From positions 87,351-151,350 of the forward strand of contig JAEIOD010000010.1 in the NCBI GenBank assembly GCA_016342415.1: DNA of 64,000 bases. Direction: 5' to 3'. The notes under the pieces are model-generated. The model saw nothing but the letters and a program-made list of their open reading frames with translations. It was not told where the DNA came from and ran no database searches. Both the position numbers and the translations under genes were made by a program. The DNA is from Clostridiales bacterium. GTDB taxonomy: Bacteria; Bacillota; Clostridia; Peptostreptococcales; Acidaminobacteraceae. The stretch's first letter is position 1. Every line of letters starts with the position of its first letter. Positions 1,502 through 54,680 of the stretch are shown one piece after another.

Positions 1502-3028
1502 TCAATTCACATCCTTCTTTTCCTCGTGGTATTCTTTTTCTCCATTGACTGCCCATATATTATCTTTGGTAATAATTTTTCCGCGAATATTGGCGACCGC
1601 CTCCAAAGCCGTCAACATGGAATGATCCATATTATTGTACCGGTGCATACCATTTCTTCCTATCATGAATAAGTTTGTTATCCCATCAAGATATTCACGT
1701 ACACTCTCAAAGTCATCATAAGAGCCGATATAAGAAGGGTATGCTTTGGGCATATACACTACCGTGCTATCTATAACATCCTTTCGTTCGATGGCATCGA
1801 TTGAAATTAACTCTTCAATAGAGAATTCTATTAAATCATCCTTTTCCATATTCCAAAAATGATCCCCTTCATTGCAAAAATATTCAAGACCAATCCAAAT
1901 GTTATCTCGATTCTTTACCATATACGGACTCCAGTTATTAAAGATCTGGATGCGACCCATTTTCACACTGTTTTCTTGTACGTAAATCCAATTATCCGGT
2001 ACTTTATAGTCACTATCGCCAGAGTTATTACCTAAGTTGAACCGTTTAAGCAAGAGTCCAACGGAGATAAAATCCCTGTATTTTAAATTTTTTGCTATCT
2101 GATGAACAGTATCAGGTACTTTAGGTTTCATCCCGATTACAAGTTCACGTACTGGCATTGTAGAAATAAAATAATCACACTCCAAAGCTTCTATCTCTTT
2201 TGTAAGTTGATCCTGTACAATAACTTTTTTCACTTTATTATCAGTATAATGAACTTCAATTATACTTTTGTTGAAATGAATCACACCACCCTTTTCAACA
2301 ACTTTTCTACCAACTTCATCCCACATTTGTCCAACACCATATTTCGGATAAAAAAATCGACTAATTAAACTTGTTTCTACATCTTTTTGGGCAATATCAC
2401 ATTTCTTATTGTGTATGATTAGTTTTGATCTGATTGCATGTTTGATAACTTCTTTAATAGAAATACCCTTTATGCGTTGAGCACCCCATTCAGGTTTGAT
2501 TTCAGAGCAGGGAACACCCCAAACTTTCTCAGTATAATCCTTAAAAAAAGTTAAATACAACTCTTTTCCAAATCTATTTATAAAAAAATCTTCCAGTGAC
2601 TTTTCGGTTCTAATTGGAAATATCATGCTTTTCAAATAACTGAAACCCATTCTTACTACTTTTCTTAATCCTAAATTCTTAAAGGTTTTAACATTTAATT
2701 GAATAGGATAATCAAAAAACTTCATCATATAAAAAATACGAGATACTCGATTTCTTATTATCATGACATTATCTGATTTAGTATTGCTGTCATCTTCAAT
2801 AGGCATGATATTATTCCACCAACCCATAATTCTATCAGATTTTGAGAAGAAGCGATGTCCCCCAATATCCATTCTGTTCTCCTTATAATTGATGGTTTTG
2901 GATATGCCACCTACGACATCAGACATTTCATAAATAACTGGCAATACATCTGTTGTTTCTAATAGTTCCATTGCAGCTGTTAATCCTGCTACACCAGCTC
3001 CTGCGATTATTGCAACTTGTTTTCCCAT
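1502..3028 (-). CDS. UDP-galactopyranose mutase (Glf)-family FAD-dependent oxidoreductase, unusually long (508 aa)
   Basis: N-terminal Rossmann motif IIGAGVAGL. Glf-like motifs [14 protein letters not shown] (compare Glf GYTEKQWG) and C-terminal [15 protein letters not shown] (compare Glf GRLAEYKYYDMHQVI). SD-like sequence upstream. Confidence 0.7.
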
Positions 3029-3654
3029 AGTATGTGCTCCTTTTAAAAACTTATTATATTTAAAATATGATTAAGATAGAATAACATGTATCGCTAAATC
3101 AGTAAGTATATCCAACAATACTTTCAGTATAAAGTATTGTCATTCATAATACTTTAGGACCTTTGTCCCTATTTTTGGTATTAAAGGATAAAAAACGAAG
3201 CATCAATAGCAGTATTGAATCTCTCAAATCAAAGTCGCGACTAACTGCACCAATAGATAGAAATATAATCTCTTCATACCCAAATACAAGATGCCTGAAC
3301 TGATATAATAAAATCCCAGTTTTCCATGATATGAGTTGAAGAATCCATTTATTGGTATAAATCTACAAAAATAATTCGTTTTGTCTTAACATAAATCCAG
3401 TTGGAAGACCTTTCACCATAAAATAACAGAAGAAACTCTCGGTGTGAAACTAACTCGCCTTTGCGGCACTTATATGACAAAGTCATTAATGATAAGTCTG
3501 AAAAGTACTTTTGTATTAGGTAAAATAATTATAGATAAATAAAACTTTTAAACTACAAAGTTCGCTCAAAAAAAAAAACAATATTTTTTTCTTTGAAGTT
3601 TAATATTTTAATGAAATGGGTATAATTGCCGTATTCCAATTGAAGGGTGTTTAT

Positions 3655-4275
3655 ATGAATAATATAGTAAATATGAAAAGTACAGCACCAAATCCATATC
3701 TATATTTATTTAACAAAAAACGGAAAGATGTTTCACAAAAGTATGTCACTAAAGATATGGCTCTAGTAAAAACTGAAAACTTAGAAGATGTTGCCATTAA
3801 AAATAAAATAGCTCAGCTTGCGATGCAAGAAAAAGCTATTATTAGTCATGAAAAAATGCATTTGATGGTAGGCGGGAATTTAGCAAGTGGTCCATCATAT
3901 ATATATACCACTGGACCAGATGGTAAAAGATATATCGCAGGTGGACAAGTAAATATGAAAATGCCGTCAGGAGGTAGTCTTGACAGTTTATTGAGTGGCT
4001 TAAAAAGAATAAAAAATGCCGCGACTGCAGTTGGAAATCCTTCTGGAACAGATTTAAACACAGCCGCTACTGCTGCGGCAATCGAATCTGCTGTTTTGAA
4101 GGAAATGGCTCTAAGAAAAATGAACGAAGCTTATAGCAAATCAAGAGAGCAAGCTAACGAACCTAAAATTGATAATAATATGACCCATATTGATATGTTG
4201 ATTGAAAAAAGTTATGTTTCAAAATTATCCACTATGAAATTCAGAGTCCTTTCGAAATTCGAATTACTAATATAG
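3655..4275 (+). CDS. hypothetical protein with HExxH motif (ISHEKMH), Gly/Ala-rich middle region
   Basis: ORF 3616..4275 in track. The second ATG (3655, MNNIVNMKS) has a better SD (GAAGGGTG) than the first. HEKMH is a zinc-metallopeptidase-type signature, but no family was recognised. Confidence 0.5.
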   Translation: MNNIVNMKSTAPNPYLYLFNKKRKDVSQKYVTKDMALVKTENLEDVAIKNKIAQLAMQEKAIISHEKMHLMVGGNLASGPSYIYTTGPDGKRYIAGGQVNMKMPSGGSLDSLLSGLKRIKNAATAVGNPSGTDLNTAATAAAIESAVLKEMALRKMNEAYSKSREQANEPKIDNNMTHIDMLIEKSYVSKLSTMKFRVLSKFELLI

Positions 4276-12331: not shown

Positions 12332-13171
12332 CTAATATAAATATATGTTAAATTTCTTTTCTAGCTCAATAAGTGGATTCATATAGCCATCTGTGATATT
12401 CAAGTGTCTCATTCTGAAATACAGGCTTCTTAGGAAATGCTTCACATTAATCCTAACGGTGTACTTAAGTATCTTGTCTTCGATTTCAAAAACATCATTA
12501 AACTTCTCTAACCACATTTTGAAATCAGAAAGTGTAATCATTTTTTCACCTATATAACTATAGACAATGTTTGTAGCTAAACGTTCATCTTCCTCTCTAG
12601 CAAGAGGTGTATCAATACTCATGAGTTTTGTTTGAATTATATCAAGAACCTTCAAAGACATCTCTCTTGGTTCTTTCATTTCAAAAGTAAAGTAATAATT
12701 GGTATCACTCCAATGAGCAAATGCATGAGCCCAACCATGATTTTCGTCATAGCCTCTAAAATCATGCTCCTTTTCAATATACTCAATCATACGATTTCTA
12801 AAATGATCTAATTGGCCTTCTGTCAAAAAAGGTTCTGCTTCATGCGCTTCTAAAATTGGATTGAGTGTTAAAGTTGAAAAACTTCGTTTGTAAACAGAAG
12901 TATCATCTATTTGCCCTATATTATAGAATATATAATCCTCTGACAACAATGTATCAAATAAATGACTCATCGTGTTCTTGTCCATCATCTTCTTGATCTC
13001 AATCCATTGAACCATTGTCGGTAAAATAAGATGATCTCTAAGTACAGGATCAAGATCACCGATATGACACATCATGTGTTCCAAATAGTCACCAATCGTT
13101 TCACCTTGTACAAGCTCAAAATTGTTGTTTTTTATAATGATTAATTTTTCTCTTAACTGTAATCTTTCCAT
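12332..13171 (-). CDS. DUF2785-family protein (279 aa)
   Basis: Size and motifs (GYDENHGWAHAFAHWSD) resemble the Firmicutes DUF2785 family. This is from memory of the family and was not searched. Confidence 0.5.
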   Translation of the reverse strand: MERLQLREKLIIIKNNNFELVQGETIGDYLEHMMCHIGDLDPVLRDHLILPTMVQWIEIKKMMDKNTMSHLFDTLLSEDYIFYNIGQIDDTSVYKRSFSTLTLNPILEAHEAEPFLTEGQLDHFRNRMIEYIEKEHDFRGYDENHGWAHAFAHWSDTNYYFTFEMKEPREMSLKVLDIIQTKLMSIDTPLAREEDERLATNIVYSYIGEKMITLSDFKMWLEKFNDVFEIEDKILKYTVRINVKHFLRSLYFRMRHLNITDGYMNPLIELEKKFNIYLY

Positions 13172-13638
13172 TTTTCCTCCTAAGTAGTTTGAGTTATATG
13201 TATTGTTAGGATTTAAAATAAGGCATAACGTACCTCCTTATCAAATAATTAAGTACAATATATCATCAAAAAATAAACTTAGATAGGTAAAGAATGATTA
13301 TACCTACTTCGGTTTGTAAATAAGCTCTTTGTCCAATGGACAAACTAAAATTCAGGCATTTTCTATCTTTAATTTCATTGAAGCATGCTATAGATTCAAG
13401 TTAATTGTTAACAACACTTAACAGGTTTAGACAAAGAGAAAGTTGAGAACAATAAATTTGTCTGATTATTGCGTCATTTTAGTTGTTCCTGTAATAATTG
13501 TATTTACATTTCATTTATATGATAAGCTTAATTATAGGAATGACCAACATCATCAAGTCATATTGATGACTGAAATAATAAGGTAATCCAAGAGATAATT
13601 TTTTATACTAAAACATCAACAACTCAACTCGAAATGGA

Positions 13639-39472: not shown

Positions 39473-41080
39473 TTATTGGAAATTACTAAGCTCTCTACAT
39501 GTACACGACTTTATTTCTACCATCTTTTTTTGCGTCATAAACCGTTGATCAGCGGTATTTACGAGTTTTTCCAAACTTACTTTATCATGTGTTGTCGCCA
39601 AACCAAAACTCATGGTAACCGAAATCTCATTTCCCTCAAATGTCATGATAGTTTTTTCTAAAATCATACGTAGATTTTCTGCTGCTACCACAGCATGCTC
39701 TATTGTCGTGCTTCTCATAAGAATTAAAAATTCCTCTCCTCCCCATCGACAAATAAGATCACTTTCTCTTGTATTGTTCATCATACATTTTGATATTTCT
39801 TTCAACACAAAATCACCACAATTATGTCCATAAACATCATTGACACGTTTAAAATGGTCAATATCACATAAGATAACTGTAAGTGGAAAATCATGATGAT
39901 TCTTCTTCGTGTTTAGCTTATCATAAATTTTCATCATTGATCTTCGGTTATGCAGTTCTGTTAAAGTATCTCTTTCTGAATGCTTACGTAGATATGATTT
40001 GACTATTCTTTCACTATAGCGGTAATAATTAAGTAAGAAAACGAGAAGTATTACGATTACTATTACAGAGATAGATAAGGTTCTAGATATCAGATATCCT
40101 TGTAAGAAGTCCTTTTCAGGAACTACAATTCCAATTTTCCAAAAATCATTTTTAATGGTTTCCAAATCAGTGAATATAGTATAATACCATTTTCCATTAA
40201 CTTTAAATCTATACAGCTGTTTTATTGGTTTCTTAGCGTATTGAAATGTTTCCATAATGACTTCTTCATCAACAATGTTAACCTTAGTAGATCTAATAAT
40301 CTCATCGGAATTGATTAAATCATTGGTAGTTGTAAAAGCAACTATACTACTTTTATTATTTATAATAATCGCCTCACCATTGTCACTAATTTCAAGATTT
40401 TTTATGTAATCTGAAATGCCTTTCAGTTTAAAATCAAAACTAAAAGCACCAACGACTTCATTATCGATAATAATTGGCGTACCTACAGTAATACCCAAAT
40501 CCTGGTCAGTAAATAAAGTATAGACTGGCGTCCAAAAAATATCTTTTTTTGCCTTTGCTCCAACATACCATGGTCTGTTTCTAGGATCATATTCGTCTAA
40601 TGGTGAACTCGTTTCTTCAATTATCTCAAAATCATGATTATAATGCTTCCAAGTTATGTATGGAACCGATGAATCACGATAAATGGTTTTAACCGACAGC
40701 GTTTCATCTTCATTTTTCTTCAGCATGAAGAAATTTCCATTCTCATATCCAATGTTAAGTGCCCTAATCGATGCATAACGATTTAATATTTGTACACCTA
40801 ATTTTTCAAGTGTTTCATAATCTTTAATTTCATTTTGGTATGCATTTAAATAATCTTCAAAAAACATGTTGGCATTTACAACAGGATACAGGTAGACTTC
40901 AATTTTATTGTTCACAGAACTAGATGTTTTAAATAAAAACTCTTCCGCTAAACTCTTGGAAGTATCAAAAATGATCTTCAACCCATATATAGATGTGATG
41001 ATTACAATCAACAACATCAGCAATATGCTTGGTAAAAAAAACTTGTCCCTTGCTTGTTCAATATTCATAATAACCTCCAT
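39473..41080 (-). CDS. sensor diguanylate cyclase (TM-dCache_1-TM-GGDEF)
   Basis: N-terminal TM, ~280-aa extracytoplasmic Cache-like domain, second TM, then GGDEF with RWGGEEF. Confidence 0.8.
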   Translation of the reverse strand: MEVIMNIEQARDKFFLPSILLMLLIVIITSIYGLKIIFDTSKSLAEEFLFKTSSSVNNKIEVYLYPVVNANMFFEDYLNAYQNEIKDYETLEKLGVQILNRYASIRALNIGYENGNFFMLKKNEDETLSVKTIYRDSSVPYITWKHYNHDFEIIEETSSPLDEYDPRNRPWYVGAKAKKDIFWTPVYTLFTDQDLGITVGTPIIIDNEVVGAFSFDFKLKGISDYIKNLEISDNGEAIIINNKSSIVAFTTTNDLINSDEIIRSTKVNIVDEEVIMETFQYAKKPIKQLYRFKVNGKWYYTIFTDLETIKNDFWKIGIVVPEKDFLQGYLISRTLSISVIVIVILLVFLLNYYRYSERIVKSYLRKHSERDTLTELHNRRSMMKIYDKLNTKKNHHDFPLTVILCDIDHFKRVNDVYGHNCGDFVLKEISKCMMNNTRESDLICRWGGEEFLILMRSTTIEHAVVAAENLRMILEKTIMTFEGNEISVTMSFGLATTHDKVSLEKLVNTADQRFMTQKKMVEIKSCTCRELSNFQ

Positions 41081-41199: not shown

Positions 41200-42700
41200 T
41201 TGATCAAAGCAGCATAATAACAGGTGTAAGAGTTATCTTTCAAGCACAAATGAGTGGTACTAGATACCGAACACTAATCCTTGTTTGAACAATTGTTTAA
41301 TGTGTGATAACTCAGTTAATGTCTTCGCTTACCTATGTAAGGAGGTCACCATGAAAGTTGTTTATCCTACTTGTTGTGGCATTGATGTACACAAGAGCTT
41401 TCTCGTTGCCACAGTAATCACTTCCGATAGCATTAAACCTAAATATTTTAAAAAGCGGTTTTCTACTTTTAACAATTCGCTCAAAAAATTAAAGGATTGG
41501 CTATTGGAATTTAACTGCCTCGATATCTGCATGGAATCTACAGGCAAGTATTGGATCCCCGTTTACAATATCCTAGAAGATACTTGCAACGTCACTATAG
41601 CCAATCCTAAATGGGTACGTGCCATTCAGGGTCAAAAAGACGACGTCAAAGACTCCAAGTGGATAGCTGAGCTATTCCGATTAGGACTTGTACCTGGTAG
41701 TTTTATACCCGAAAAACCGATTCGTATTCTAAGGGAATTCACTCGGTACAGATCTAAAATCACGAATTGCAACTGTAGCGAAAAAAATCGCTTCCAAAAT
41801 GCTTTTACCGTTTGTAATGTCGCACTTGATTCTGTTGTTTCCGATATGTTCGGTGTTTCTGCCAAAGCTATTACTAATTATCTCATTACGAGTGATACCT
41901 TCGATTCTGAAGTCTGCACTTCTCTTCTAAAAACATCTTTGAAAAAGAAAGCCGATATTGTACTCGATTCAATCCAAGGTTATTCTATGGAATCAGCTCA
42001 AAAAGACCGAATGCTACTTATTAGAAATCATCTCAATTACACCGAACAAATGCTTGAGATAATTGATTCGAAACTAGACGAATTAATTTTACCTTATGAA
42101 AATGCTATAAGCCTACTTTGCTCTATTCCAGGAGTGGGCAGACGTTCTGCCATAACGATTATCTCAGAAGTTGGGATTGATATGTCCTACTTTAGAAATT
42201 CAAAAAGATTATGTTCTTGGGCCGGATTAACTCCGAGTAACAACCAATCTGCTGGTAAAAAGAAGTCTGTTAAAGTCTCGCGTGCTGGTGTCTACCTCAA
42301 ACCAGCATTAGTCCAAGTGGCTCATGCTGCCGTGAGATCAAATCAGAATCCATATTATAAAATAAAATATAAACGAATTTCAAAACGTAGAGGTAAAAAA
42401 CGAGCAATTATAGCTATTGCAAGAATGTTACTTACCGCAATTTTTCACATGTTATTAACAGGTGAATTATTCAATCCATGTGATCTTTTTAAATTTGATA
42501 TGCCCGAAGAAATGCTTGAACGTCAAAAGAAAAAAGCAATTAACAATGCTATCAAATTATTGAACAGAGAAGGTCTCATTAATAATCTAGAAGCATTAGC
42601 TACTTAATAAGTAATTCTAAATCATTAAGGCTTATTTAAGTGCGCCTGAAATTGATTTTTTTGTATTGTTTTCACACTACTCTCCTTGTTAATTAAAATG
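41200..42700 (+). mobile_element. IS110-family insertion sequence (boundaries approximate; the family lacks clear terminal IRs)
   Basis: Contains a DEDD transposase gene. Flanked by a GGDEF gene start and an esterase remnant. Confidence 0.6.
41351..42607 (+). CDS. IS110-family transposase
   Basis: Likely start MKVVYPTCCGIDVHK with SD GGAGGTCA. The track ORF starts earlier at 41285. Typical IS110 N-terminal DEDD region and C-terminal domain. Confidence 0.8.
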   Translation: MKVVYPTCCGIDVHKSFLVATVITSDSIKPKYFKKRFSTFNNSLKKLKDWLLEFNCLDICMESTGKYWIPVYNILEDTCNVTIANPKWVRAIQGQKDDVKDSKWIAELFRLGLVPGSFIPEKPIRILREFTRYRSKITNCNCSEKNRFQNAFTVCNVALDSVVSDMFGVSAKAITNYLITSDTFDSEVCTSLLKTSLKKKADIVLDSIQGYSMESAQKDRMLLIRNHLNYTEQMLEIIDSKLDELILPYENAISLLCSIPGVGRRSAITIISEVGIDMSYFRNSKRLCSWAGLTPSNNQSAGKKKSVKVSRAGVYLKPALVQVAHAAVRSNQNPYYKIKYKRISKRRGKKRAIIAIARMLLTAIFHMLLTGELFNPCDLFKFDMPEEMLERQKKKAINNAIKLLNREGLINNLEALAT

Positions 42701-43015: not shown

Positions 43016-43243
43016 TCATTTTTTATTTATTAAAACTTCTCTTAAACCTCTATTAAACGTTGCAGGTATAACCGACAAGTGTGTTTCATTATCAAAGATA
43101 TGAGTTGTTAAGTTTGATCCAGAATAGTTTTTCTCATTAAGTATTTTAGATAGGTCAACTACATTGTCCACCATTTTTGCAAACCCAGGTTCATCTATAG
43201 CTTCTAAAGCACCCGATGACATAAATACATTGGTATTCAACAT
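43016..43243 (-). pseudogene. C-terminal remnant of an alpha/beta-hydrolase (esterase-family) gene
   Basis: 75-aa ORF (..GALEAIDEPGFAKMVDNVV...THIFDNETHLSVIPATFNRGLREV) resembles the C-terminus of putative esterases. No N-terminal part between it and the next gene. Confidence 0.35.
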
Positions 43244-43411
43244 TTTTTTGATGACTATCCTGCTCCATTAAAGTATCATGTTATATTGCCCCAGTATTTT
43301 ATGACTTCTTAATTCATTGAATGATCTTCTATGTCATTATTTTTCTTCTAATTATATCTTCACAAAAAAGACCCAACAAGATTAATCATCTTATTGGATC
43401 TCTTATTGTAC

Positions 43412-46400
43412 TTATTTATTACCGAGTATATCTTTGATCATACCTAGGTTATCTGTAATATCACTTAGAACCACAACCGCCTTACCCATTGCATCATCAC
43501 CTTTAGTCAGCTTGTTCTTATTGTATAAACGTTTGATTTCATCAAATCTCTCTGACTCTTTCTGGCTCATGCAACCAACAAGTTCTTTCCACTTTAGAAT
43601 ATTGGATTCAGCGCCATTTGTAAGTGTTTGGCAGTCATTTTCATAACTGGCAAGAATCTGTTCAAACAGCTCTTCTTCGTTCATAGCAGATACAACTCGT
43701 TCTGCTATTTTATTCATATTTCTGTAAGAACCTTGAAGCTTAAACGATGGTTCATTTCTATATTCATCAGATTGTGCTGCCGAATAGATATAGGCCATAT
43801 TCACCTTTAACACAATATCTCTTACTTTACTCAGCTTTTGAATGACTTGAGTATATTCATTCAACTCATCCGCTGTATAACTGCTTTCCAAAGTTATCGT
43901 TTGACGATCAACACCATTAGCCATTTGAACCAAACCATAAACATCTGATTGACTGCGATTTGTCAACTTGGAAAGCACTGGATTTGAAGTTAAACTGTTC
44001 TCAATATAACTTAACTTAAAGGCTTCTTCATTTTCACGTAACATGTCTCCTAAATTGTATACATCAGCTCTATTGGCAAGCATATCCGGAATTTTGAATT
44101 TCTCGCCACTTTCGGTATATGGATTACCAGCCATAACAACTGCAATCTTTTTACCTCTGAGATCATAAGTCTGTCCAACATTATTGTAGACACCTTCAAT
44201 CTTTCTTTGTCCATCACATAAGGAGATGAATTTCTGTAAGAATTCAGGATGGCAATGTTGAATATCATCAATGTACAACATGATATTATTACCCATTTTT
44301 AATGCCAGATTCAATTTTCTCAGTTCTTCTCTAGCACTTGAGTGAGTCGCCTTTTCAGGGTCAAGTGACGTGACTTCGTTACCAAGAGAAGGTCCATTGA
44401 CTTTAACCAGAATAAATCCAAGTCGACTGGCAATATACTCCATCAACGTTGTTTTACCATAACCAGGAGGTGAAACCAACAACAATAGACCCATTAAATC
44501 TGTACGTTTATCATCACCGACCACACCCATTTGTTTTGCAAGATTGTCTCCAACCAAAGGTAAGTAAACATCATCAATCAATTTATTTCTTACAAAAGAT
44601 GTGAGTACATTAGGTTTGAAATCATCCATACGTAATTCAGCTTTGAAACTCTTTATCAATTCTTTTTTGATTTGTTGGTACTGAAGATAGTCCTTAACCA
44701 CCGTCTCACTATACACCTTAAGTTTTTGCATAAACTTCGTATAGGCCAACAGATATGACCCCTCTTCTATAACGCCATGTGAGCCAACCAGTCCGTCTAC
44801 AGTCGTTTTGGTCGGAAGCGGTACCACACTATTCATATTCACATCATCTTCCAACAGAAGTACAACAACTTCATCTAACACCCCTGACAGTTCTTCTTCA
44901 CTTATATCAAGGTGTCGATTTTCGTTATTTAACTGATCCAACCAATAAGCAGAAACCCATTCTTTGACCAGATAATATTGACCCTCAAGGTCATCACGAC
45001 AGTTTTTCAATGATACCTCAAATGCATCCAAAGCTTTTTTATCTCTAATATAAGCCATAAATCCATCATAAACCTGTTTTGCTTCTAGACTGATGACAAA
45101 AGGTCCACCTTGCATTAGCTCCTTACAAAGATATTCTGAAGCTTCCAAAATATCACTAGCCTCATAAAACGGAAACTCATCATAAGCCTGTTCAAACTTT
45201 TCAGCAATGAAAGGTAGATAATTTTCTAAGCTTGGTACTGAATCAAAGAAAGATTCTACCTTTGCCAAGTGATTCAAACGCGAACTCAATAATTTTTTTG
45301 TTGATGTGTCCACCAATCTATTCCAGAACAACCTTGCCATCGAACGCACTTCACTTCTGTAAATCAGTAGATTTACATTATGATACAGTTCCAGCAACGA
45401 CCGTAAAATCTTAGTCGCATCATTATCATGAACACCTTTAGTATAACCTTCTTGATACCTTGTCTCCATATACGTTCTGACAATCTCTGAAAGTTGAGAT
45501 TCAGACATGTTATAAAGTGTCGTCAAGTCTTCAATATGTTCGTGTTGAGACGCTCTGAAGATCGAATATGCTAGATACTCTCCTCTATAGACATCTGCAT
45601 TTTCAGATACCAAACTCTGCTCGAAAACATGTTGGTAACTGTTTATGCCCTCATGTATAACTTTATCCCAAAAATCAGTACCCGTTATATGATAATAGAG
45701 TTGTTTATCCTTTTGTACAATTGACAGATCAATGGCTTTTCTATTGACAGAAAAATGATGATTACCTAACTTAATAACATCCTGACCATGTAGGTACAAC
45801 TCCTGTTTGTCTTTTAACTGACGGATTGTATTCTCTTTGAGAGATTTTAACTTTGAACTGATTTCATCCGCTTTAACACTATCTCCCAATGCTCTCAGCT
45901 CTGATATGATATCTCTGACTTTCTCTGCCATAATATCAGTCGCCAAATAACCATTGATCATATCAAGTGATTCAAGTGTCATCAAACGATTGGAAATACC
46001 ACTAATAATACGTTCTGACGAATCGAATAACGCCACCAGTCTTTTGTTTAACTTATCAAGAAGGGCTTGTTTTCTAGATTCAAAAGCACTATAGATTTCT
46101 TCTCTTTTTTCATCAAGTTTGACCAAATACTCATCAAACTCAGAAAACTTGCCTTCTAACTCCTGTAGTTGTACCATTACTTTATTCAAGTAGTTGTCGC
46201 ATTTTTTTTCAGAATCCGAGATTTCAAGGTAATTGACTACAGCCTGACTCAACAGTTTCATCTGTGCGTTAAACTGAATCGTCATCTCTTTTTTCGTAAA
46301 CGCTTCAACCTTTGTTCTTAGTTTCGCTTTGGCGTTGTTTAAAAAAGAAAACAGTTCAGAAATCTTTTCAATGATCTTAGTGGTCACTGTTGGATCTTCA

Positions 46401-48298
46401 ATTTTAAAATTACTGACGATGTCCATAAGCAATTCCAGATCAAATGAAGTTTTGTCCATCTTTTCAGCTAAGTCATGTCCTTCTCGAGACTTCGTTACAA
46501 ATTCAATATTTGATTGCAACTCATTTACGGCTTCTTCATAAGGCTTAAGACCATCAGGACTGATTAGAAATGTAACACATTGATTAGAGAATATTTCATT
46601 TTTATCTTTAATACTGTTATCAAGAGCATCAACCATTTCTGGATCTGTAAACATTAAATCACCAAGAGATACAATTTTCCCTCTTAGATTTCTAATTTCT
46701 CCAAGCACATCCACATATTCGTTAACCGAATCAAATGTTCCGTATTCCAGCTTTTTTAGAAGTTCTTCAGTTTCTTCACTGACTTCCTGTATTTGCTTCT
46801 GTGTTGCATTCTTAATTCTTGTAACTTTTTCGAACTCACCAATAGCAAATGTGGATGTTTCCTTGATTTCTTTTATTACTTCTGCAAGATTGAAAGCTTC
46901 TTCTTTATTCACCCAGAAATATGAATCCAATATGCCTTGTGTTTCTTTTACGATATCCATATAAACACTTTGATAACTATCGCCTTTTTGAATCAGTTTA
47001 CCGACAGCTCTACAAGCAGCAATACAGTCCACGATATCTTTGTTACCAATCTTGTATAAAGCAGACTCGTTGTTGCTTGCGCTCTCAAAGTCTTTCCCTA
47101 CATAAGGTGTTTGCCATACCTGCAACGAATGATTTTTTCTAGGTTCATCTTCATGTCTGAAAACAATCATCTCACCATTGTTGAAATGCGAATAACCACT
47201 ACATACAATAGGCACTTCAATGGTTTGTTCAATCACATTATACGAGTACATCAGATAGGTACCGCTATCCATATTATAAAAGATATATTGATAGTCTTCC
47301 CCATTTGACGAACTGTTCAACTCATCAAAAACTGACTGTTCTACTGGCACATCAAATATTTTATATTCACCATTTTGCAAATAATAACCTTGTGGAAAAA
47401 TCAAGCCATGACCATTCGGTAAAAGCATACATGTATCTTCAATGGAATCAATTCTAATAACGTTTTTCAACTTGTCATTGAAGACAAAATACCGATAAGC
47501 CTTTTCTTTATAAGGCAGTATTTTAAGTATGATCAACTGACCCAAATCAACATAATAAATCTCTGAATCATCAAGAGTTTGATCTTTATCTTCCACATCC
47601 TCAGAGTAGATACCTTTACCTACATCCGTATTATCTTCTATTTTTATTGTTAGATCGCCACCGACTGTTTCTACAAACACTTTATCCAAAATAGACACAT
47701 GCGGATGAAGACCCGATCGTTGTTGGTCCCTTGTAACTTTTTCAAATTTAAAATCATTTCCTAACTTAAACTTGACTTCATGTTCACTTCTGTTGTCCAC
47801 ATAAGTTAAACGCTTGCCTTCAATATGCCATTTGAACACTTTGATGTCCGTCGCACTTTTCCCGGTCTGAAAAACCATATAAAAGTATGGTTCAACGATC
47901 GTAAATTTAGCAAAGAAGGTATTCTTGTAGTACAGATAAAGATCATCAAAATCCTTTTTGAATTGATCATCATTGATCAGCTCAAGGGATTCTTTTACAA
48001 ATCCCTCTTCACCATATCTATAAATCGAAAAAACATCTTGTAATTCAACTCTATGCTTTAAACCAATATGAACATTGTATCCAAATATAAAACAATCATC
48101 CACTGGTGCCATATCACGAGGGATACAGTTATTTTCAGTAATAATTCGTTCACTTGATAACAACTTCGTTTCAATCGAACCAAAAACTTCTTTTCTAACA
48201 GTATTTAATTGTTCTGCTTTGGATTTTAAGTCGACGCCTTGTTTTTCCAGACGACTTTTAATCACATCATAAGTTCCTGTATCCATTTTATTCTCCAA
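43412..48298 (-). CDS. giant (about 1625 aa) coiled-coil protein with C-proximal MoxR/AAA_5-type AAA+ ATPase domain, co-operonic with flotillin
   Basis: Walker A LLLLVSPPGYGKTTL, Walker B IMLYIDDIQ, sensor AVVMAGNP...R. Long central heptad-rich region (residues ~600-900). N-terminal ~450 aa is beta-rich. Likely start ATG at 48286 (SD GGAG), overlapping the flotillin stop. Confidence 0.8.
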   Translation of the reverse strand: MENKMDTGTYDVIKSRLEKQGVDLKSKAEQLNTVRKEVFGSIETKLLSSERIITENNCIPRDMAPVDDCFIFGYNVHIGLKHRVELQDVFSIYRYGEEGFVKESLELINDDQFKKDFDDLYLYYKNTFFAKFTIVEPYFYMVFQTGKSATDIKVFKWHIEGKRLTYVDNRSEHEVKFKLGNDFKFEKVTRDQQRSGLHPHVSILDKVFVETVGGDLTIKIEDNTDVGKGIYSEDVEDKDQTLDDSEIYYVDLGQLIILKILPYKEKAYRYFVFNDKLKNVIRIDSIEDTCMLLPNGHGLIFPQGYYLQNGEYKIFDVPVEQSVFDELNSSSNGEDYQYIFYNMDSGTYLMYSYNVIEQTIEVPIVCSGYSHFNNGEMIVFRHEDEPRKNHSLQVWQTPYVGKDFESASNNESALYKIGNKDIVDCIAACRAVGKLIQKGDSYQSVYMDIVKETQGILDSYFWVNKEEAFNLAEVIKEIKETSTFAIGEFEKVTRIKNATQKQIQEVSEETEELLKKLEYGTFDSVNEYVDVLGEIRNLRGKIVSLGDLMFTDPEMVDALDNSIKDKNEIFSNQCVTFLISPDGLKPYEEAVNELQSNIEFVTKSREGHDLAEKMDKTSFDLELLMDIVSNFKIEDPTVTTKIIEKISELFSFLNNAKAKLRTKVEAFTKKEMTIQFNAQMKLLSQAVVNYLEISDSEKKCDNYLNKVMVQLQELEGKFSEFDEYLVKLDEKREEIYSAFESRKQALLDKLNKRLVALFDSSERIISGISNRLMTLESLDMINGYLATDIMAEKVRDIISELRALGDSVKADEISSKLKSLKENTIRQLKDKQELYLHGQDVIKLGNHHFSVNRKAIDLSIVQKDKQLYYHITGTDFWDKVIHEGINSYQHVFEQSLVSENADVYRGEYLAYSIFRASQHEHIEDLTTLYNMSESQLSEIVRTYMETRYQEGYTKGVHDNDATKILRSLLELYHNVNLLIYRSEVRSMARLFWNRLVDTSTKKLLSSRLNHLAKVESFFDSVPSLENYLPFIAEKFEQAYDEFPFYEASDILEASEYLCKELMQGGPFVISLEAKQVYDGFMAYIRDKKALDAFEVSLKNCRDDLEGQYYLVKEWVSAYWLDQLNNENRHLDISEEELSGVLDEVVVLLLEDDVNMNSVVPLPTKTTVDGLVGSHGVIEEGSYLLAYTKFMQKLKVYSETVVKDYLQYQQIKKELIKSFKAELRMDDFKPNVLTSFVRNKLIDDVYLPLVGDNLAKQMGVVGDDKRTDLMGLLLLVSPPGYGKTTLMEYIASRLGFILVKVNGPSLGNEVTSLDPEKATHSSAREELRKLNLALKMGNNIMLYIDDIQHCHPEFLQKFISLCDGQRKIEGVYNNVGQTYDLRGKKIAVVMAGNPYTESGEKFKIPDMLANRADVYNLGDMLRENEEAFKLSYIENSLTSNPVLSKLTNRSQSDVYGLVQMANGVDRQTITLESSYTADELNEYTQVIQKLSKVRDIVLKVNMAYIYSAAQSDEYRNEPSFKLQGSYRNMNKIAERVVSAMNEEELFEQILASYENDCQTLTNGAESNILKWKELVGCMSQKESERFDEIKRLYNKNKLTKGDDAMGKAVVVLSDITDNLGMIKDILGNK

Positions 48299-50312
48299 GG
48301 ACAGTATCTACAAGTTTTGCTGGTAAACCAGCTACGCCAGCTTTATTGACTGTATCCAGTAATTTTGATAACATCGCTTGATCACTACCACCAGCCGTAT
48401 GCATCATTTTACCAATTGCTCCTGCAATAGACAGGTTCTTTAAGTCTTCTGAAGACAGATTGAATCTACCAACCAAAGTCTTTAATTGTTGTTGGAAATA
48501 ATCTGCGTCTCCAGTAATCAAGGTTTCTTTTATGTCAGTTAGAACATCACTGTTGTCTACCAATCGATCAATGGATTTACCTTGAGCGATTGAACCAATA
48601 ATCTTATCAAAGAACATAGACTCACCACCAACGATATCGATTTTAGCCGATTTAAGAGCTTCACGGATAACAGTCGCCTGAGCTTCTGCAATGTCCTTTT
48701 GAATACTGATGTTAGCCAGTTCAATTTCTTTTTCTTTATCCAGCTTAAGCTTGAATTCTTCATGACCTCTTCCGACTTCATCCAGTAATTTCATGCTGTT
48801 TGCTTTTTCTTTAATACCTTCAGCTTCAGAAAGATATCTTCTCTTAAGATTCTCAGCTGTAACAATTCCGTCTTTTTCTTTAACTTCTACTTTTGCTGTT
48901 TCACCTTTTGCTTCTGCCATTGCCTTAGCTTCAATAACCTTAGATTCTGCAATACCTTCTACGGAACCTTCTAGTACTCTAGCATCTACAATCACTTTAA
49001 TCGCTTCAGCTTCTTTTTGAGACGCTTTTAGATTTGCATCCGCATCAATAATTGTCTTTTCTGCTTGTTTTTCTGCTGCTTGTTTTGCAGATTCAGCTGT
49101 TTGTACTTCAAGTATCAGTTTAGTTTCAGCATCTTGTTCAGCTTTTCTAAGTGCTACATTCTTTGTACGATTAGCATCTGCAAGTGCACGTGTATCTTTT
49201 ATTTTTTCTTCTTCCACAACCGTATCTTTTTCAACGGTAACTCTCTCTCTTATCACTGACTGAATAGCTTTCTTTTCTACTTCTATCAGCTTCTCTTTAT
49301 CGATAATAGCCAGTTCAACAAGTTTTTCTTTCTCAGTTCTTTCAAGTAGTCTCTTTCTATCAACTCGTTCTGTTTCAACAGCTTCAGTACTTTCTTTTGA
49401 TTTTGCAGCAATGATGATCTGTCTATCTTTATTCTCTTCTGCAATACCGATTTCTTCTTCTGTTTTAACTCTGGCAAGTTCTGATTTGTATTTTTCTTCT
49501 TGCGCTACTTTTTCAGCTTCAGCTATTTCTCTAGAATTGATAATAGAAATCTCTCTCTTTTGTTTCGCTTCGGCTTCTGCATTTTGCTTTTCAAGTTCTA
49601 AAATCGCTTCTCTTGCAGCCACGTCTTGTTTCTTAATAGTTTTTTCTTTTTCTCTTGCAATTTCATTGGCTAGAATACTTTGCTGTGCTGTCAACTCAGT
49701 AATCTTCTTAATACCTTCCGAATCTAAAATATTATCAGCATTTAATAGATTAATATCTGTTTGCTCAAGATAATCAATAGCAGCATCATCTAATACATAA
49801 CCGTTTAGATCCGTACCAATAATTTGAAGAATCTCACTCTTGAAGATATCTCTTTCAGTATATAACTGAACAAAATCAAATTTCTTACCGACCGTTTTAA
49901 GTGCTTCTGAGAACTTCGCATCAAAGAAAGCCATTAGAGTTTCAGTATCCGATGCTTTCTGACAGCCCAATAGTTGTGCAACTTTAAGAACATCTTCTGT
50001 TGTTTGATTCACTCTTACGAAGAATGCAACACGAATATCCGCTCTTAAGTTGTCTTTACAAATCAATCCGTCTTTACCTTCTCTGGCAATTTCAACACGT
50101 TTGATAGAAATATCCATTTCCTCATATCTATGAATAATTGGAACAACAAAGATACCGCCAAAACAAACCACTTGATTACCAACACCGTTTCTGATGATAA
50201 CTTTAGATTGCTCTACTTTGTGATAAAATTTTCCGAACAATGCCAATAAACCTATGGTGATGACTACTATTGCTCCCACTGTTACAAATGTTACTTGTGA
50301 TAAAAACCCCAT
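48288..50312 (-). CDS. flotillin / SPFH (band 7) family protein with extended Glu/Ala/Lys-rich coiled coil
   Basis: N-terminal TM, then SPFH domain (VIIRNGVGNQVVCFGGIFVVPIIHRYEEMDISIKRVEI...), EA-rich heptads (NAEAEAKQKREI...). 674 aa is longer than typical FloT. Confidence 0.85.
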   Translation of the reverse strand: MGFLSQVTFVTVGAIVVITIGLLALFGKFYHKVEQSKVIIRNGVGNQVVCFGGIFVVPIIHRYEEMDISIKRVEIAREGKDGLICKDNLRADIRVAFFVRVNQTTEDVLKVAQLLGCQKASDTETLMAFFDAKFSEALKTVGKKFDFVQLYTERDIFKSEILQIIGTDLNGYVLDDAAIDYLEQTDINLLNADNILDSEGIKKITELTAQQSILANEIAREKEKTIKKQDVAAREAILELEKQNAEAEAKQKREISIINSREIAEAEKVAQEEKYKSELARVKTEEEIGIAEENKDRQIIIAAKSKESTEAVETERVDRKRLLERTEKEKLVELAIIDKEKLIEVEKKAIQSVIRERVTVEKDTVVEEEKIKDTRALADANRTKNVALRKAEQDAETKLILEVQTAESAKQAAEKQAEKTIIDADANLKASQKEAEAIKVIVDARVLEGSVEGIAESKVIEAKAMAEAKGETAKVEVKEKDGIVTAENLKRRYLSEAEGIKEKANSMKLLDEVGRGHEEFKLKLDKEKEIELANISIQKDIAEAQATVIREALKSAKIDIVGGESMFFDKIIGSIAQGKSIDRLVDNSDVLTDIKETLITGDADYFQQQLKTLVGRFNLSSEDLKNLSIAGAIGKMMHTAGGSDQAMLSKLLDTVNKAGVAGLPAKLVDTVLGE

Positions 50313-50975
50313 CTAAAACTCCTCCATCTCCTTAAAACTAAATTCTTCCTTCATTAACGATTTTGCTATATAATAAATATCTTGTTCTTTATCCTTACTG
50401 AATACAAATGCGACCTCACCCTTTTTAAATGACTCCTCTTCAAATAGCGTTTTAACATTAATCACTATTGAAGCACCTTTTTGTTTCAGTGATGCTTGAC
50501 CGAGTCTCCCATGTTCCAAATCACATAATAATGTGCATCTTCTGGTCAACACTTTATGATCAACGTCATCATGATTTTTTCTGTCAGGAAAAACCTTTCT
50601 CAGTGGAACCATTTCCGCTTTTGTGATGTATATACTCCCTATTACAGCAGGTAACAACATCAAGCCAGCAATGACACCGCCTGCTTCGATTGGTAGAAAA
50701 TACGTCAGCATCATAATGATCCAAAAATTCAGTACAAACAAACTGAACACCAGTGCAGCAGGTACCTTGCCAATGTTAATAAAAACGGCAATTGCACTTA
50801 TTGGTCCAACACTTTCAGCACCTTCAAGATCTACATCGATATCGAAAAAATCAAAGTCAAAAAGACCTGTAATCGCAATCAACCAATAGCACTGCATTAA
50901 AATAAGTATTACCGTCGGAATAACATTTACTCCTTTGAATGCAAATCTTAGTAATTCCGTTAGAATCCCCTCCAT
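50313..50975 (-). CDS. NfeD-like (YuaF/YqiJ-type) membrane protein with C-terminal OB-fold
   Basis: Multi-TM N-terminal part, C-terminal soluble OB-like segment (GRLGQASLKQKGASIVINV...GEVAFVF). Directly abuts the flotillin start, the canonical nfeD-flotillin pairing. Confidence 0.7.
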   Translation of the reverse strand: MEGILTELLRFAFKGVNVIPTVILILMQCYWLIAITGLFDFDFFDIDVDLEGAESVGPISAIAVFINIGKVPAALVFSLFVLNFWIIMMLTYFLPIEAGGVIAGLMLLPAVIGSIYITKAEMVPLRKVFPDRKNHDDVDHKVLTRRCTLLCDLEHGRLGQASLKQKGASIVINVKTLFEEESFKKGEVAFVFSKDKEQDIYYIAKSLMKEEFSFKEMEEF

Positions 50976-51335
50976 CTCTTATAATAGTTAACTTAATTAA
51001 ATTTGACACTATGCTTATAACTATTAATAACTCAACTGCATTTGAAACATAAGCTTAGTAAAATTCAAATAAACATCTCCCAGTATTTACTATTATAGCA
51101 AAAAAGACCTACGGAAGAACATAATAAAAGAAGAATTAATCTATATTAAATATGAGTTAATATTTGTGTTCTCTCATAATACAATGAGAGCTTTTTATGT
51201 ATAGAAATTAAGGAAAAGTTAATATTTCAATAGAAGAAGCGTATGTCATATAATCAAAAAAATATCCCGCTTTTGAAAAGGGGATATTGATTCTTCACTT
51301 TATCATATTTTTTATGACCAATAAAAGATTTTAAT

Positions 51336-51824
51336 CTAAACTAGAAAGTTCTGAAGATCTTTTATAAACTGTAATGCCTCATCTTCGATTAAATCTGTCA
51401 AAGAAGTTAACTCATCGAAGTTCGGATTTTCAGCTAATATGTGTTCAATAATGGAATCTACGCCATTTAGAGTTGAATTGATTTCATATTTATCAAAGTC
51501 ACCATTTCTAAACAGGTGCCAATATTTCTTTTGAACCTGTTTATTATTTCCTGCTAACCAGACTTCAAATCTGATTGTCTCATGAACAAAAACAATCGCT
51601 ATTTTCAGTTTTCTTTTTTTTAGAAAATCCGGAGTAAACGAAAAATACGACATGTCCATATACCCAGAATAAACACTTCCAGATACAAAGTAATCTGGAT
51701 ACTTGCTTTTGAAATGACTTCTCAAACTCATTATATATTCCATTAAACCTATATAGGCTTTTTTTATATCGCCCTTTTCCAATTGATTTTTATATTCCAA
51801 AACGTACTCATTTAGTGAGTCCAT
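51336..51824 (-). CDS. hypothetical cytoplasmic protein (162 aa)
   Basis: ORF only. Confidence 0.45.
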   Translation of the reverse strand: MDSLNEYVLEYKNQLEKGDIKKAYIGLMEYIMSLRSHFKSKYPDYFVSGSVYSGYMDMSYFSFTPDFLKKRKLKIAIVFVHETIRFEVWLAGNNKQVQKKYWHLFRNGDFDKYEINSTLNGVDSIIEHILAENPNFDELTSLTDLIEDEALQFIKDLQNFLV

Positions 51825-51887: not shown

Positions 51888-53243
51888 TTATTCAGGCTTC
51901 TGATCTTTTCTTCTTCTCTTCACCACAATAAATAAGATTACAATGACAACAAGAACAACCACTGCTATAAGTATTACGACTATATAACCAGATGAAGAGT
52001 TATCTTCTGATGTTTCGGATTGACTTGCATTTGATTTTTCACTCAAGTCCGTTGTTGCAGTCACATCTGTTGATTCTTCATCTTCAGCAGTTGTGTTTTC
52101 TGCTTGAAATTCACCATACGCCATTATTAAAATATGTCCGTCCTGCCTTGAATCCGGTAAAAGCACAAACGGGTTGTTGTCTTCATCCATGCCTGCAAAC
52201 ACAATGTTGGAACTTTCTTTTGTAAAACCTCTTTGACCCATTTCAATCCATGTTTCACCATTGTATCTCATTGAAGTGATTCTGTTTTCATAGTCACTGT
52301 CATTAAAAAATACAACCGGCCATCCATCTGAATCCATTACCACCGAAAAGGTTTTGATCATCATCGGTGAAAACGGATGTGGCTCCATATACTCCCATGT
52401 TTCATTGTTATAGATCATACCGACGGTCTTCCATTCCAGACCTGTATCCATATAGATTAAAATAGGTCTGTCTCCATTACCCATTTCCAGTCTTACCCAT
52501 AACGGGTATTCTGATTCAAAACCACTGTCGTCGGTCATTTCCCAACCACTATTTGAAGAGTATCTCCATACTTCAAGATTACTTCTTTCAACTATCACTG
52601 CAGCATAGACATATTGGTTGTTGCGATCAACCAACAAACTGATATAATTGGCTGTAACTTCTGTAAATCCCCGTTCGCCTAATGCTATCCACTGACCATC
52701 CGTATAAACCTTGGATGTTATTTTGCCATCTTCTTCAATGTCAACATAGGCAATCACTAAAGAGCCATCACTCATCACTTGAAAATCATAATAGATGTAC
52801 TGAGGATCAATTCGAAGCAATCTTCCAGCAGTCGTCAGTGCCTGCCATTTTTCATCTAGATATTCATAGATATGAATGACACCATCAATCGTAATAAAGC
52901 CTACATACAGCCGCTCTGATGAATCATCGTATCTTACAATGAATTGACCACCGCTTTTATCAGAAATAAAGCCTGATCCCAACTCCGTCCACGACGTACC
53001 ATCATACATTTTTGCTTTAGGAAATGGTAATATTTCACCCGTCGGATCATCAATCGAATAAACAACATAAATATTGCCGTCATTGTCAATAGAGAAAGAG
53101 TGTACTTTAGTTGTTTCATCTGAAAACCCTAAAACATCTCTTTCTTGCCAATCATCAGTTGCTGCTTTTGTCATTGAAAAGCTCAAAAGGTAGATAATAC
53201 TTATACAAAATATTATAATCGCCCTGAGTCCTATTTGCTTCAT
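51888..53243 (-). CDS. type-I membrane/surface protein with six Trp-containing ~60-aa repeats (beta-propeller-like), acidic S/T linker and C-terminal TM anchor
   Basis: Signal peptide MKQIGLRAIIIFCISIIYLLSFSMTKA. Repeats GTSWTELGSGF / DEKWQALTTAG / DGQWIALGERGFT / NSGWEMTDDSGF / GETWIEMGQRGFT. C-terminal TM VVILIAVVVLVVIVILFIVV followed by KRRRKDQKPE. Confidence 0.6.
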   Translation of the reverse strand: MKQIGLRAIIIFCISIIYLLSFSMTKAATDDWQERDVLGFSDETTKVHSFSIDNDGNIYVVYSIDDPTGEILPFPKAKMYDGTSWTELGSGFISDKSGGQFIVRYDDSSERLYVGFITIDGVIHIYEYLDEKWQALTTAGRLLRIDPQYIYYDFQVMSDGSLVIAYVDIEEDGKITSKVYTDGQWIALGERGFTEVTANYISLLVDRNNQYVYAAVIVERSNLEVWRYSSNSGWEMTDDSGFESEYPLWVRLEMGNGDRPILIYMDTGLEWKTVGMIYNNETWEYMEPHPFSPMMIKTFSVVMDSDGWPVVFFNDSDYENRITSMRYNGETWIEMGQRGFTKESSNIVFAGMDEDNNPFVLLPDSRQDGHILIMAYGEFQAENTTAEDEESTDVTATTDLSEKSNASQSETSEDNSSSGYIVVILIAVVVLVVIVILFIVVKRRRKDQKPE

Positions 53244-53594: not shown

Positions 53595-54680
53595 GTGAAA
53601 AACATTAACCTTCTGAATACAATTGGATACTCTAAAAAACTCAATTACAAAGACAAACTTCTTTATCTAATGGTACTAAGCACTATACTTGTTGCAGGTT
53701 TTTACTTAACCATTTATTTTTTATTTATTCCATTTCAACATGCCATTATTACACATCTTATATATATTTCAGTGAGTATCTCTTTATTTTATTTTCTGAA
53801 AATAAAAAAATATACATTTGTTAAATTTTCTATGATAATTTTTCATATGATTCAATTAACACTGGCAGTATTTGTTTGGTTCCCAATAACAACCGGCTAT
53901 AATCTATATTATTTTTTAGTCCCTATGGCCTCGTTTCTAATGATGCAATATGACAACGTCAAAGAAAGAGTTTTCTTAACGATACTGTCGATACTATCAG
54001 CCTGTCTTTATCTTTTAAGCGCCATTTTGCCATTAAATAACTACATGTTTCAAACAAGTGATGTCATGAATAGATTTCTGAGCGGAATGAGTATCATATC
54101 AATCATGTTTCCCATGATTGTAATATTGACTAAGTTTACTAAGGAGTTGTATTTAAGCCATGCTACTCTAAGAAAAATAGCAAATACAGATGCTTTAACA
54201 CAGATAATAAATCGAAAAGCATTATATGAACAAGGCATTCATGAATTTGAGCAGGCTGACAATTACCCAAAAGACTTTACACTTCTTCTTTTTGACATTG
54301 ATCATTTTAAAAATATCAACGATCAATTTGGACATCCTGTTGGAGATAAATTGTTGCAAGAGCTCACATCATTAGTCCAAAAACATATTAGAGCGGAAGA
54401 TATTTTTGCAAGATACGGTGGTGAGGAATTTGCAATCTTACTTCGCAATACCAACTACAGTACAGGTCTTGAAATTGCAGAAAAACTGTTGTTGATCATC
54501 AGTCAGGCCTCTTTTTCGATTGATCAAATATCAATTCGTATATCAGTAAGTATTGGTGTCGCACAATACTCAAAGGCACTTAAGGACTTTGATCATATGA
54601 TCGAGGTAGTAGATCAAGCGTTATACGAAGCAAAAAACAGCGGGAGAAACCAGGTAGTCTCAGCCAAACACATTACTTAA
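53595..54680 (+). CDS. membrane-anchored diguanylate cyclase (about 6 TM then GGDEF)
   Basis: Hydrophobic N-terminal half, then GGDEF with RYGGEEF. Confidence 0.8.
   Translation: MKNINLLNTIGYSKKLNYKDKLLYLMVLSTILVAGFYLTIYFLFIPFQHAIITHLIYISVSISLFYFLKIKKYTFVKFSMIIFHMIQLTLAVFVWFPITTGYNLYYFLVPMASFLMMQYDNVKERVFLTILSILSACLYLLSAILPLNNYMFQTSDVMNRFLSGMSIISIMFPMIVILTKFTKELYLSHATLRKIANTDALTQIINRKALYEQGIHEFEQADNYPKDFTLLLFDIDHFKNINDQFGHPVGDKLLQELTSLVQKHIRAEDIFARYGGEEFAILLRNTNYSTGLEIAEKLLLIISQASFSIDQISIRISVSIGVAQYSKALKDFDHMIEVVDQALYEAKNSGRNQVVSAKHIT

Follow-up and report, generated by a model that had tools for sequence, protein, structure and literature searches.

What is the gene for a giant AAA+ ATPase doing directly behind the genes for an NfeD-type membrane protein and a flotillin? 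The question is raised by a locus from a Clostridiales bacterium, found in a stretch of 64,000 nucleotides (contig JAEIOD010000010.1 of assembly GCA_016342415.1, positions 87,351–151,350 of the forward strand), which is referred to here in its entirety as the window. The three genes form a compact operon, and the triad is inherited together across many phyla. We propose, with a probability slightly better than even (about 0.55), that the ATPase would act as an ATP-driven remodeller or chaperone docked on flotillin/NfeD membrane assemblies during envelope stress.

Organization of the operon

The genes and the candidate expression signals of the operon are as follows.

50313..50975, minus strand: gene 1, predicted YqiJ/YuaF-type (NfeD-like) protein of 220 residues, with about three transmembrane segments and a C-terminal soluble domain
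48288..50312, minus strand: gene 2, predicted flotillin of 674 residues, with an N-terminal transmembrane segment, an SPFH/Band_7 domain, a coiled coil rich in E, A and K, and a conserved C-terminal flotillin-type region
43412..48286, minus strand: gene 3, predicted soluble AAA+ ATPase of the DUF3686 family, 1624 residues, named 'DNA repair ATPase' by NCBI
51092..51100, minus strand: candidate extended –10 promoter element TGcTATAAT, about 115 nucleotides upstream of gene 1 (consensus match only)
43358..43404, minus strand: terminator-like hairpin with a U-run, beginning 8 nucleotides past the ATPase stop codon

Three minus-strand open reading frames (ORFs) were verified, at 50975..50313 (220 residues), 50312..48288 (674 residues) and 48298..43412 (1628 residues). 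The TAG of gene 1 (50315–50313) abuts the flotillin ATG at 50312, leaving a junction of 0 nucleotides, and 1 nucleotide separates the flotillin TAA from an ATG at 48286 that has GGAG upstream of it. Both junctions carry a Shine-Dalgarno sequence. The 1628 residue ORF is a mechanical extension of gene 3 to a TTG at 48298, within the flotillin gene. The ATG at 48286, giving 1624 residues, is probably the true start and the TTG an artefact of mechanical ORF calling, because the ATG adjoins the flotillin TAA, has the GGAG and matches the orthologues in length and in start methionine. P0001 and P0002, the orthologues nearest in sequence (94 and 91% identical), likewise have 1624 residues, and when the sequences of P0001 and P0004 were read they were found to begin at the matching methionine (MDTGTY and MDSGTY). 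ATPase residues are numbered throughout in the 1628 residue frame.

An earlier reading of this region, made from the letters and a list of ORFs and referred to below as the sequence-only reading, had described three tightly coupled minus-strand genes, for an NfeD-type protein, a flotillin and a giant protein, with the flotillin stop codon overlapping the start of the third. The ORFs and the 0 and 1 nucleotide junctions bear out the tight coupling, which holds with either ATPase start codon. The overlap exists for the mechanical TTG ORF; it disappears with the likelier ATG, which lies past the TAA.

Upstream, 360 nucleotides of intergenic sequence separate gene 1 from the next gene. In a generic promoter scan of this upstream region sites were no more numerous than in shuffled sequence, and the TGcTATAAT element stays a candidate. 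Downstream, the 17 bp hairpin folds with –20.8 kcal/mol (z = –5.9), and in RNA folding none of 200 shuffled sequences folded as well; it marks the end of the operon. The abutting junctions, the 360 nucleotide gap with its TGcTATAAT element and the hairpin after gene 3 therefore define a compact three-gene operon encoding a small membrane protein, a flotillin and a giant ATPase.

Conservation of the triad across phyla

The ORFs of 84 loci were searched with the three proteins of the window, and the 65 loci that included at least 3.2 kb of DNA upstream of the ATPase gene were counted. A flotillin orthologue was found upstream of the ATPase gene and on the same strand in 62 of the 65 (E values 1e-77 to 0), and in 58 an orthologue of the small transmembrane protein was upstream too. 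A linkage that returns in 62 loci out of 65 is far above chance, and the adjacency of the flotillin and ATPase genes is not fortuitous. The sequence-only reading had named a comparison of gene neighbourhoods as the check that could expose the adjacency as an accident of one genome, and what emerged was strongly conserved synteny.

The loci in the survey came from Bacillota, Bacteroidota, Planctomycetota, Verrucomicrobiota, Desulfobacterota, Kiritimatiellota and the Fibrobacterota-like Chitinispirillaceae, and annotated gene tables showed the triad also in replicons of Pseudomonas, Streptomyces and Deinococcus (Pseudomonadota, Actinomycetota and Deinococcota). An ATPase homologue was present in records from Proteus, Vibrio, Photobacterium, Halomonas and Nonomuraea, at the level of the homologue only, without its neighbourhood. 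The genes flanking the triad vary from locus to locus, and clustering of the locus ORFs revealed no fourth gene conserved in all loci. In L012, L026, L045, L046, L052, L062 and L079, which belong to Bacteroidota and Verrucomicrobiota, 0.5–2.4 kb of small genes lie between the flotillin and ATPase genes. The inserts are unrelated to each other, and strict translational coupling is thus not universal.

Some further features of individual loci were noted. The N-terminal sequences of the inserted ORFs, examined by eye, include lipoprotein-like and transposase-like ones. In L028, an ORF near the ATPase gene resembles a cytosine methyltransferase, again by eye. In the Fusibacter locus (L001) a GNAT acetyltransferase gene (13054–13536) directly follows the ATPase gene, as yuaI follows floT in Bacillus subtilis; a GNAT gene 3′ of the ATPase gene was not conserved in the other loci.

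Relationship to known operons

The sequence-only reading did not recognise this arrangement, which is already known from comparative genomics. An operon encoding a YqiJ/YuaF-type protein with three transmembrane segments, a band-7/flotillin protein and a beta-propeller/coiled-coil AAA+ ATPase was described by Ravi et al. (mSystems 2024, preprint 2020; PMC11237479), who also mention an abbreviated form without PspA and list in a supplementary table an example from Dokdonia donghaensis (ANH61663.1) with the same gene order. Their description is purely computational, and they reached the same contextual inference (PMC11237479). The window operon shares with theirs the three proteins, the domain architectures, the gene order and the orientation, and the Bacteroidota loci reproduce the full form, namely CesT/Tir, PspA, YqiJ, flotillin and ATPase. 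It differs in the absence of a CesT/Tir-PspA dyad from the 64 kb and in lacking a phospholipase D gene. Because its ORFs include no such dyad, the window holds an ordinary member of the known group, in the abbreviated form without PspA.

A literature search found no experimental work on the operon, no mention of DUF3686 and nothing linking a 'DNA repair ATPase' to flotillin or MoxR. The recent papers on SPFH proteins that were found leave the ATPase unmentioned.

The membrane protein and the flotillin

The gene 1 product has about three transmembrane segments by hydropathy and, by itself, has only a sub-threshold match to YqiJ_N in Pfam. A hidden Markov model built from 39 gene 1 orthologues from the ATPase loci aligned with Escherichia coli YqiJ end to end (residues 3–193 of 209, 36 bits, E value 2e-13), and Pfam YqiJ_N matched 13 of the 40 sequences scanned, which were the 39 orthologues and E. 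coli YqiJ itself. These matches identify the gene 1 product as an NfeD homologue of the YqiJ/YuaF type with three transmembrane segments.

The gene 2 product scored 29.2 bits for Band_7 (Pfam cut-off 23.6) and shares 29% identity over 438 residues with E. coli YqiK (BLASTP, E value 6e-42). A single transmembrane segment lies within residues 1–33 by hydropathy, and glutamate, alanine and lysine make up 46% of residues 200–560. With its SPFH domain, its similarity to YqiK and an NfeD-type gene directly upstream, it is a flotillin of the SPFH2 group, of the YqiK/FloT kind. It is conserved along its whole length, including the C-terminal block, and is 37–55% identical over the full length to the ATPase-linked flotillins of nine other phyla. 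Judged by this identity across phyla, compared with 29% to YqiK, the ATPase-linked flotillins form a separate, highly conserved and dedicated subfamily. Its members are of 643–725 residues, and the 674 residues that had been thought atypically long are normal for them.

The E. coli yqiJ-yqiK and B. subtilis yuaF-floT genes belong to the SPFH2 group (Hinderhofer et al. 2009, PMC2636767). The window operon resembles yqiJ-yqiK and yuaF-floT(yuaG)-yuaI in having a gene for a YqiJ/NfeD-type transmembrane protein directly upstream of the flotillin gene, and its flotillin has the transmembrane segment, SPFH domain and EA-rich coiled coil of the YqiK and FloT flotillins. The giant ATPase, however, is absent from those operons, and the window flotillin is about 120–165 residues longer than YqiK and FloT and of a different subfamily.

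The giant ATPase

Two AlphaFold models of the ATPase were made from an alignment of 43 sequences, with mean predicted local distance difference test (pLDDT) scores of 87.3 and 87.6, and secondary structure was assigned with DSSP. The following parts were distinguished, from the N-terminus to the C-terminus.

46916..48232, minus strand: N-terminal helix and beta-propeller-like domain (DUF3686 core), residues 23–461 (Pfam match, model pLDDT 87)
45794..46915, minus strand: long helical bundles and a coiled-coil stalk with DUF7902 (residues 583–664), residues 462–835 (model)
44585..45793, minus strand: small five-strand beta domain and conserved helical domain, residues 836–1238 (model, invariant alignment columns)
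43904..44584, minus strand: single AAA+ module with Walker A, Walker B, sensor 1 and a putative arginine finger, residues 1239–1465
43412..43903, minus strand: C-terminal helical extension, residues 1466–1628, with the invariant block YxxSAAQ ... R..EPxFxLQGSYRNM and then the stop

The match to DUF3686 (PF12458) was strong, at 581.7 bits against a cut-off of 25, and covered profile positions 1–448 of 448 (residues 23–461), and DUF7902 (PF25472) matched residues 583–664 with 81.8 bits against 26. Weaker Pfam matches to AAA, AAA_22 and AAA_5 lay around residues 1270–1396. No transmembrane segment was found, as had been predicted, the highest hydropathy over 19 residues being 1.13. The closest relatives of the ATPase are metagenomic proteins that are 94 and 91% identical and a Fusibacter protein that is 79% identical. 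There are more than 3600 homologues, 266 representatives matched at E < 1e-30 in a representative library of 1.84 billion proteins, and a scan of species-representative genomes found relatives in at least 584. Full-length members are of about 1590–2040 residues, mostly 1600–1900. The sequence-only reading had allowed that the giant protein might prove to belong to a well-characterised family with a role unrelated to flotillin; its family is Pfam DUF3686, which is not a characterised family of that kind.

In the models the N-terminal third is beta-rich, with about 26 strands in residues 45–396, in agreement with the sequence-only reading. Foldseek searches of this domain against the PDB returned only beta-propeller proteins (E values 4e-7 to 1e-4, TM-scores of at most 0.32), and we propose that this beta-propeller-like domain is a docking or substrate-recognition module. 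When residues 1–700 (46199–48298) were used, the top Foldseek matches were proteins combining a propeller with a helical solenoid, namely IFT-A, clathrin heavy chain, Vps18 and a nuclear-pore scaffold protein; the TM-scores were low, and the possible resemblance to membrane-coat and tether proteins is a lead only.

A coiled-coil core of about 300 residues had been predicted next. This part is indeed helical in the models but is larger and more structured than supposed, as the helical stretch runs from residue 413 to about 835 and is followed by a beta domain and a helical domain reaching to about residue 1238. This middle domain (residues 836–1238) gave no match in the Pfam scan. In an alignment of 31 sequences it contains the invariant residues G845, E899, R905, G955, H957 and D960, and the motifs KLGxHRFxVN, VYRAEYLA and YxEGYxKGVHDxDA are kept across phyla. 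It could be a binding site or even a catalytic site.

The AAA+ module has a Walker A motif SPPGYGKTT (1276–1284), a Walker B motif DDIQH (1344–1348), a sensor 1 asparagine (N1392) and a putative arginine finger (R1410). A beta-hairpin precedes sensor 1 at about residues 1366–1379, and an irregular segment of 18 residues (1302–1319) lies between strand 2 and helix 2, where the helix-2 insert typical of the MoxR/AAA_5 clade would be expected, as judged from the secondary structure of the model. The sequence-only reading had picked out SPPGYGKTT, LYIDDIQH and VVMAGNP as the marks of a MoxR/AAA_5-type ATPase, and all three motifs are present and invariant across the family. SPPGYGKTT, DDIQH, AGNPYT and R1410 do not vary among 31 sequences from many phyla, down to 27% identity, and because the catalytic residues are invariant to this depth the protein is expected to be an active ATPase. 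The nearest folds found by Foldseek with the model were MoxR-type remodellers (CbbQ and NorQ) together with midasin and dynein. With its catalytic motifs and these structural neighbours, the modelled module is MoxR/AAA_5-like and dynein-like.

The protein differs from the MoxR AAA+ ATPases (CbbQ, NorQ and RavA) and the related AAA_5 modules of midasin and dynein. It carries a lone AAA+ module in about 1,625 residues, preceded by about 1,240 residues of other domains, its Walker B has DD in place of DE and its similarity to the MoxR ATPases at the sequence level is marginal. CbbQ and NorQ are the best compact structural matches, and the protein might be a client chaperone in the style of MoxR that helps a particular membrane protein complex to mature or insert, with the flotillin and NfeD-type protein merely concentrating the client. 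Its target would in that case be the client and not the polymers of flotillin or PspA. The beta-propeller-like head and the middle domain with its invariant polar residues could bind such a client. However, no candidate client gene was found conserved beside the triad, and the VWA-domain adaptor that is the usual partner of MoxR is absent. That the partner flotillin is so highly conserved from phylum to phylum also suggests that flotillin itself is the constrained interactor, and we consider a client chaperone possible but doubtful.

The names 'DNA repair ATPase' and 'ATPase involved in DNA repair', used by NCBI and Pfam and shared by those homologues that are named, point to a different role, that of a RuvB-like repair enzyme whose position next to a flotillin gene would be incidental. 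There are weak P-loop matches to RuvB, and a divergent LexA-family regulator is found in the Bacteroidota loci. The similarity to RuvB, however, covers about 35–46 residues around Walker A and scores 19–20 bits against NCBIfam cut-offs of 282–299. Pfam revealed no domain for DNA binding, helicase or nuclease activity, and the literature search found no connection of the family to repair. The linkage to membrane proteins is almost universal and so the adjacency is not incidental. A role in DNA repair is highly improbable, and the database name is probably misleading.

Association with PspA and envelope stress genes

Clustering of the locus ORFs revealed PspA/IM30 and CesT_Tir_1 genes upstream of the triad. 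In 18 loci, all of them from records labelled as Bacteroidota, PspA was directly upstream in the same orientation, and 17 of these also had a gene for a CesT_Tir_1 protein; in a 19th locus (L025) PspA was downstream and on the opposite strand. In about 18 Bacteroidota loci with the full form of the operon (for example L010, 1909–4112), the triad comes after the CesT_Tir_1 and PspA genes, and ahead of these lies a divergent gene for a LexA-family/XRE helix-turn-helix regulator. A Hymenobacter plasmid (L087, with the regulator and dyad at 1577–3687) has the order LexA-family regulator, Tir chaperone, PspA, DUF1449, flotillin and ATPase. The divergent regulator suggests repressor-controlled, stress-induced expression of the full operon.

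PspA was also found together with the triad outside this group. In pQBR103, a 425 kb environmental plasmid of Pseudomonas fluorescens SBW25 (L086, 1–12184), the triad follows an operon of the PspA-polyamine type, with genes for PspA, rhomboid, DUF2491, DUF350, DUF1190 and glutathionylspermidine synthase. This locus unites two classes of PspA operon that are given separately by Ravi et al. Elsewhere, a LytTR gene paired with a LiaF-like gene stands directly before the triad in C. intestinale (L002, 3990–5157), and in Hymenobacter a LytTR-type gene paired with a histidine kinase gene adjoins it (L087, 11891–13358). The presence of LytTR genes beside the triad in two unrelated phyla hints at regulation by cell-envelope stress. 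Membrane remodelling, one of the roles guessed at in the sequence-only reading, fits the repeated joining of the triad to PspA operons.

The other role it had suggested was in defence, in which the flotillin and NfeD-type protein would sense a perturbation of the membrane by phage and the ATPase would be the effector or switch. The distribution of the system over genomes is patchy, some copies are on megaplasmids and in the window a gene for an IS110-family transposase lies just downstream, which would favour this role. However, PADLOC gave zero matches for all three proteins, no homologue was found with tblastn in 50,697 phage records and Pfam detected no nuclease, protease, toxin or other effector domain. 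The recurrent neighbours are envelope-stress genes (PspA, CesT/Tir and LiaF-like) rather than defence genes, and the high sequence conservation is unlike that of fast-evolving defence genes. Anti-phage defence or membrane surveillance is therefore an improbable function.

A proposed role at the membrane

The reading that we prefer, a remodeller or chaperone docked on flotillin/NfeD assemblies, is inferred from gene context and resemblance of folds. On the cytoplasmic side of the membrane, the flotillin and the NfeD-type protein would assemble into an oligomeric scaffold or cage. The ATPase, which lacks a membrane anchor, would be recruited to this scaffold, probably via its propeller and stalk, and would probably oligomerise via its AAA+ module. 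Hydrolysis of ATP would then serve to build up, take apart or remodel the flotillin assembly, and PspA too where it is present, or client proteins kept at the scaffold, in a response that deals with envelope stress or maintains the membrane. The genome of the window has the abbreviated form, and a PspA partner, if there is one, would have its gene at another locus. That the ATPase has no transmembrane segment while both its operon partners are membrane proteins supports the docking view.

Several observations weigh against this proposal. The ATPase gene was found without an adjacent flotillin gene in three of the 65 loci (L028, L031 and L060), where neither a flotillin nor a YqiJ-type gene was present within 8 kb upstream of it. 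Well-studied flotillins, such as E. coli YqiK, function without such an ATPase. Canonical MoxR ATPases operate with VWA-domain partners, and Pfam scans of the operon proteins, their nearby neighbours and three orthologous neighbourhoods detected no VWA family. The propeller assignment depends on Foldseek matches with low TM-scores, and no PspA or CesT/Tir homologue was present among the ORFs of the window (phmmer, E ≤ 10).

In other systems, SPFH scaffolds and ESCRT-III-type polymers are known to work with AAA+ partners. HflK/C cages enclose the AAA+ protease FtsH, PspF controls PspA, and Vps4 disassembles ESCRT-III, of which PspA is the bacterial homologue. The triad follows the logic of the HflK/C-FtsH, PspA-PspF and ESCRT-III-Vps4 pairs in coupling a membrane scaffold or polymer genetically to an AAA+ ATPase, and in Bacteroidota and on pQBR103 it shares an operon with PspA. 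An MIT domain and a classical-clade AAA module, as in proteins of the Vps4 type, were not found in the window ATPase, and the kinship with these systems is one of analogy and not of family membership. A bolder version of the docked remodeller, which we offer tentatively and regard as unlikely, is that the DUF3686 ATPase might be the missing bacterial counterpart of Vps4, a dedicated, flotillin-docked AAA+ protein that disassembles or recycles flotillin cages and PspA/ESCRT-III polymers at the damaged membrane. According to a 2025 review, a Vps4-like ATPase 'appears absent in bacteria' (PMC7619361). If true, this version would explain how these assemblies are regulated in bacteria without Vps4.

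Surroundings of the operon in the window

The IS110-family transposase gene (DEDD_Tnp_IS110 and Transposase_20) is at 41285–42607 on the plus strand. Between it and the operon is an orphan ORF of 75 residues (43016–43243, minus strand) with no Pfam match, which resembles the C-terminal remnant of a larger gene that was possibly disrupted by insertion of the IS110 element. Two genes for GGDEF diguanylate cyclases flank the operon at a distance of a few kb, at 39473–41080 (minus strand) and 53595–54680 (plus strand); one of the two proteins has a dCache sensor domain and the other an N-terminal region with multiple transmembrane segments. No evidence was found that the GGDEF genes belong to the operon. 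Upstream, on the same strand as the operon, are genes for a DUF7000 protein (51336–51824) and a protein of 451 residues (51888–53243) that has a C-terminal transmembrane anchor and a weak match to a beta-propeller repeat (SBBP). These two genes are 360 nucleotides from the operon and are not conserved beside the triad in the Fusibacter locus.

Significance

The value of this locus lies in the attention it draws to an uncharacterised system, and not in a new arrangement or a new kind of system. The operon is tractable for study, as culturable hosts include Clostridium, Flavobacteriia, Hymenobacter, Proteus, Vibrio, Streptomyces and Deinococcus. The molecular role of bacterial flotillins is still debated, and the turnover of PspA polymers without Vps4 is an open question. 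A giant ATPase whose catalytic site is fully conserved, encoded beside a dedicated flotillin in about 95% of the loci surveyed, is the obvious candidate for the energy-consuming part of such a system.

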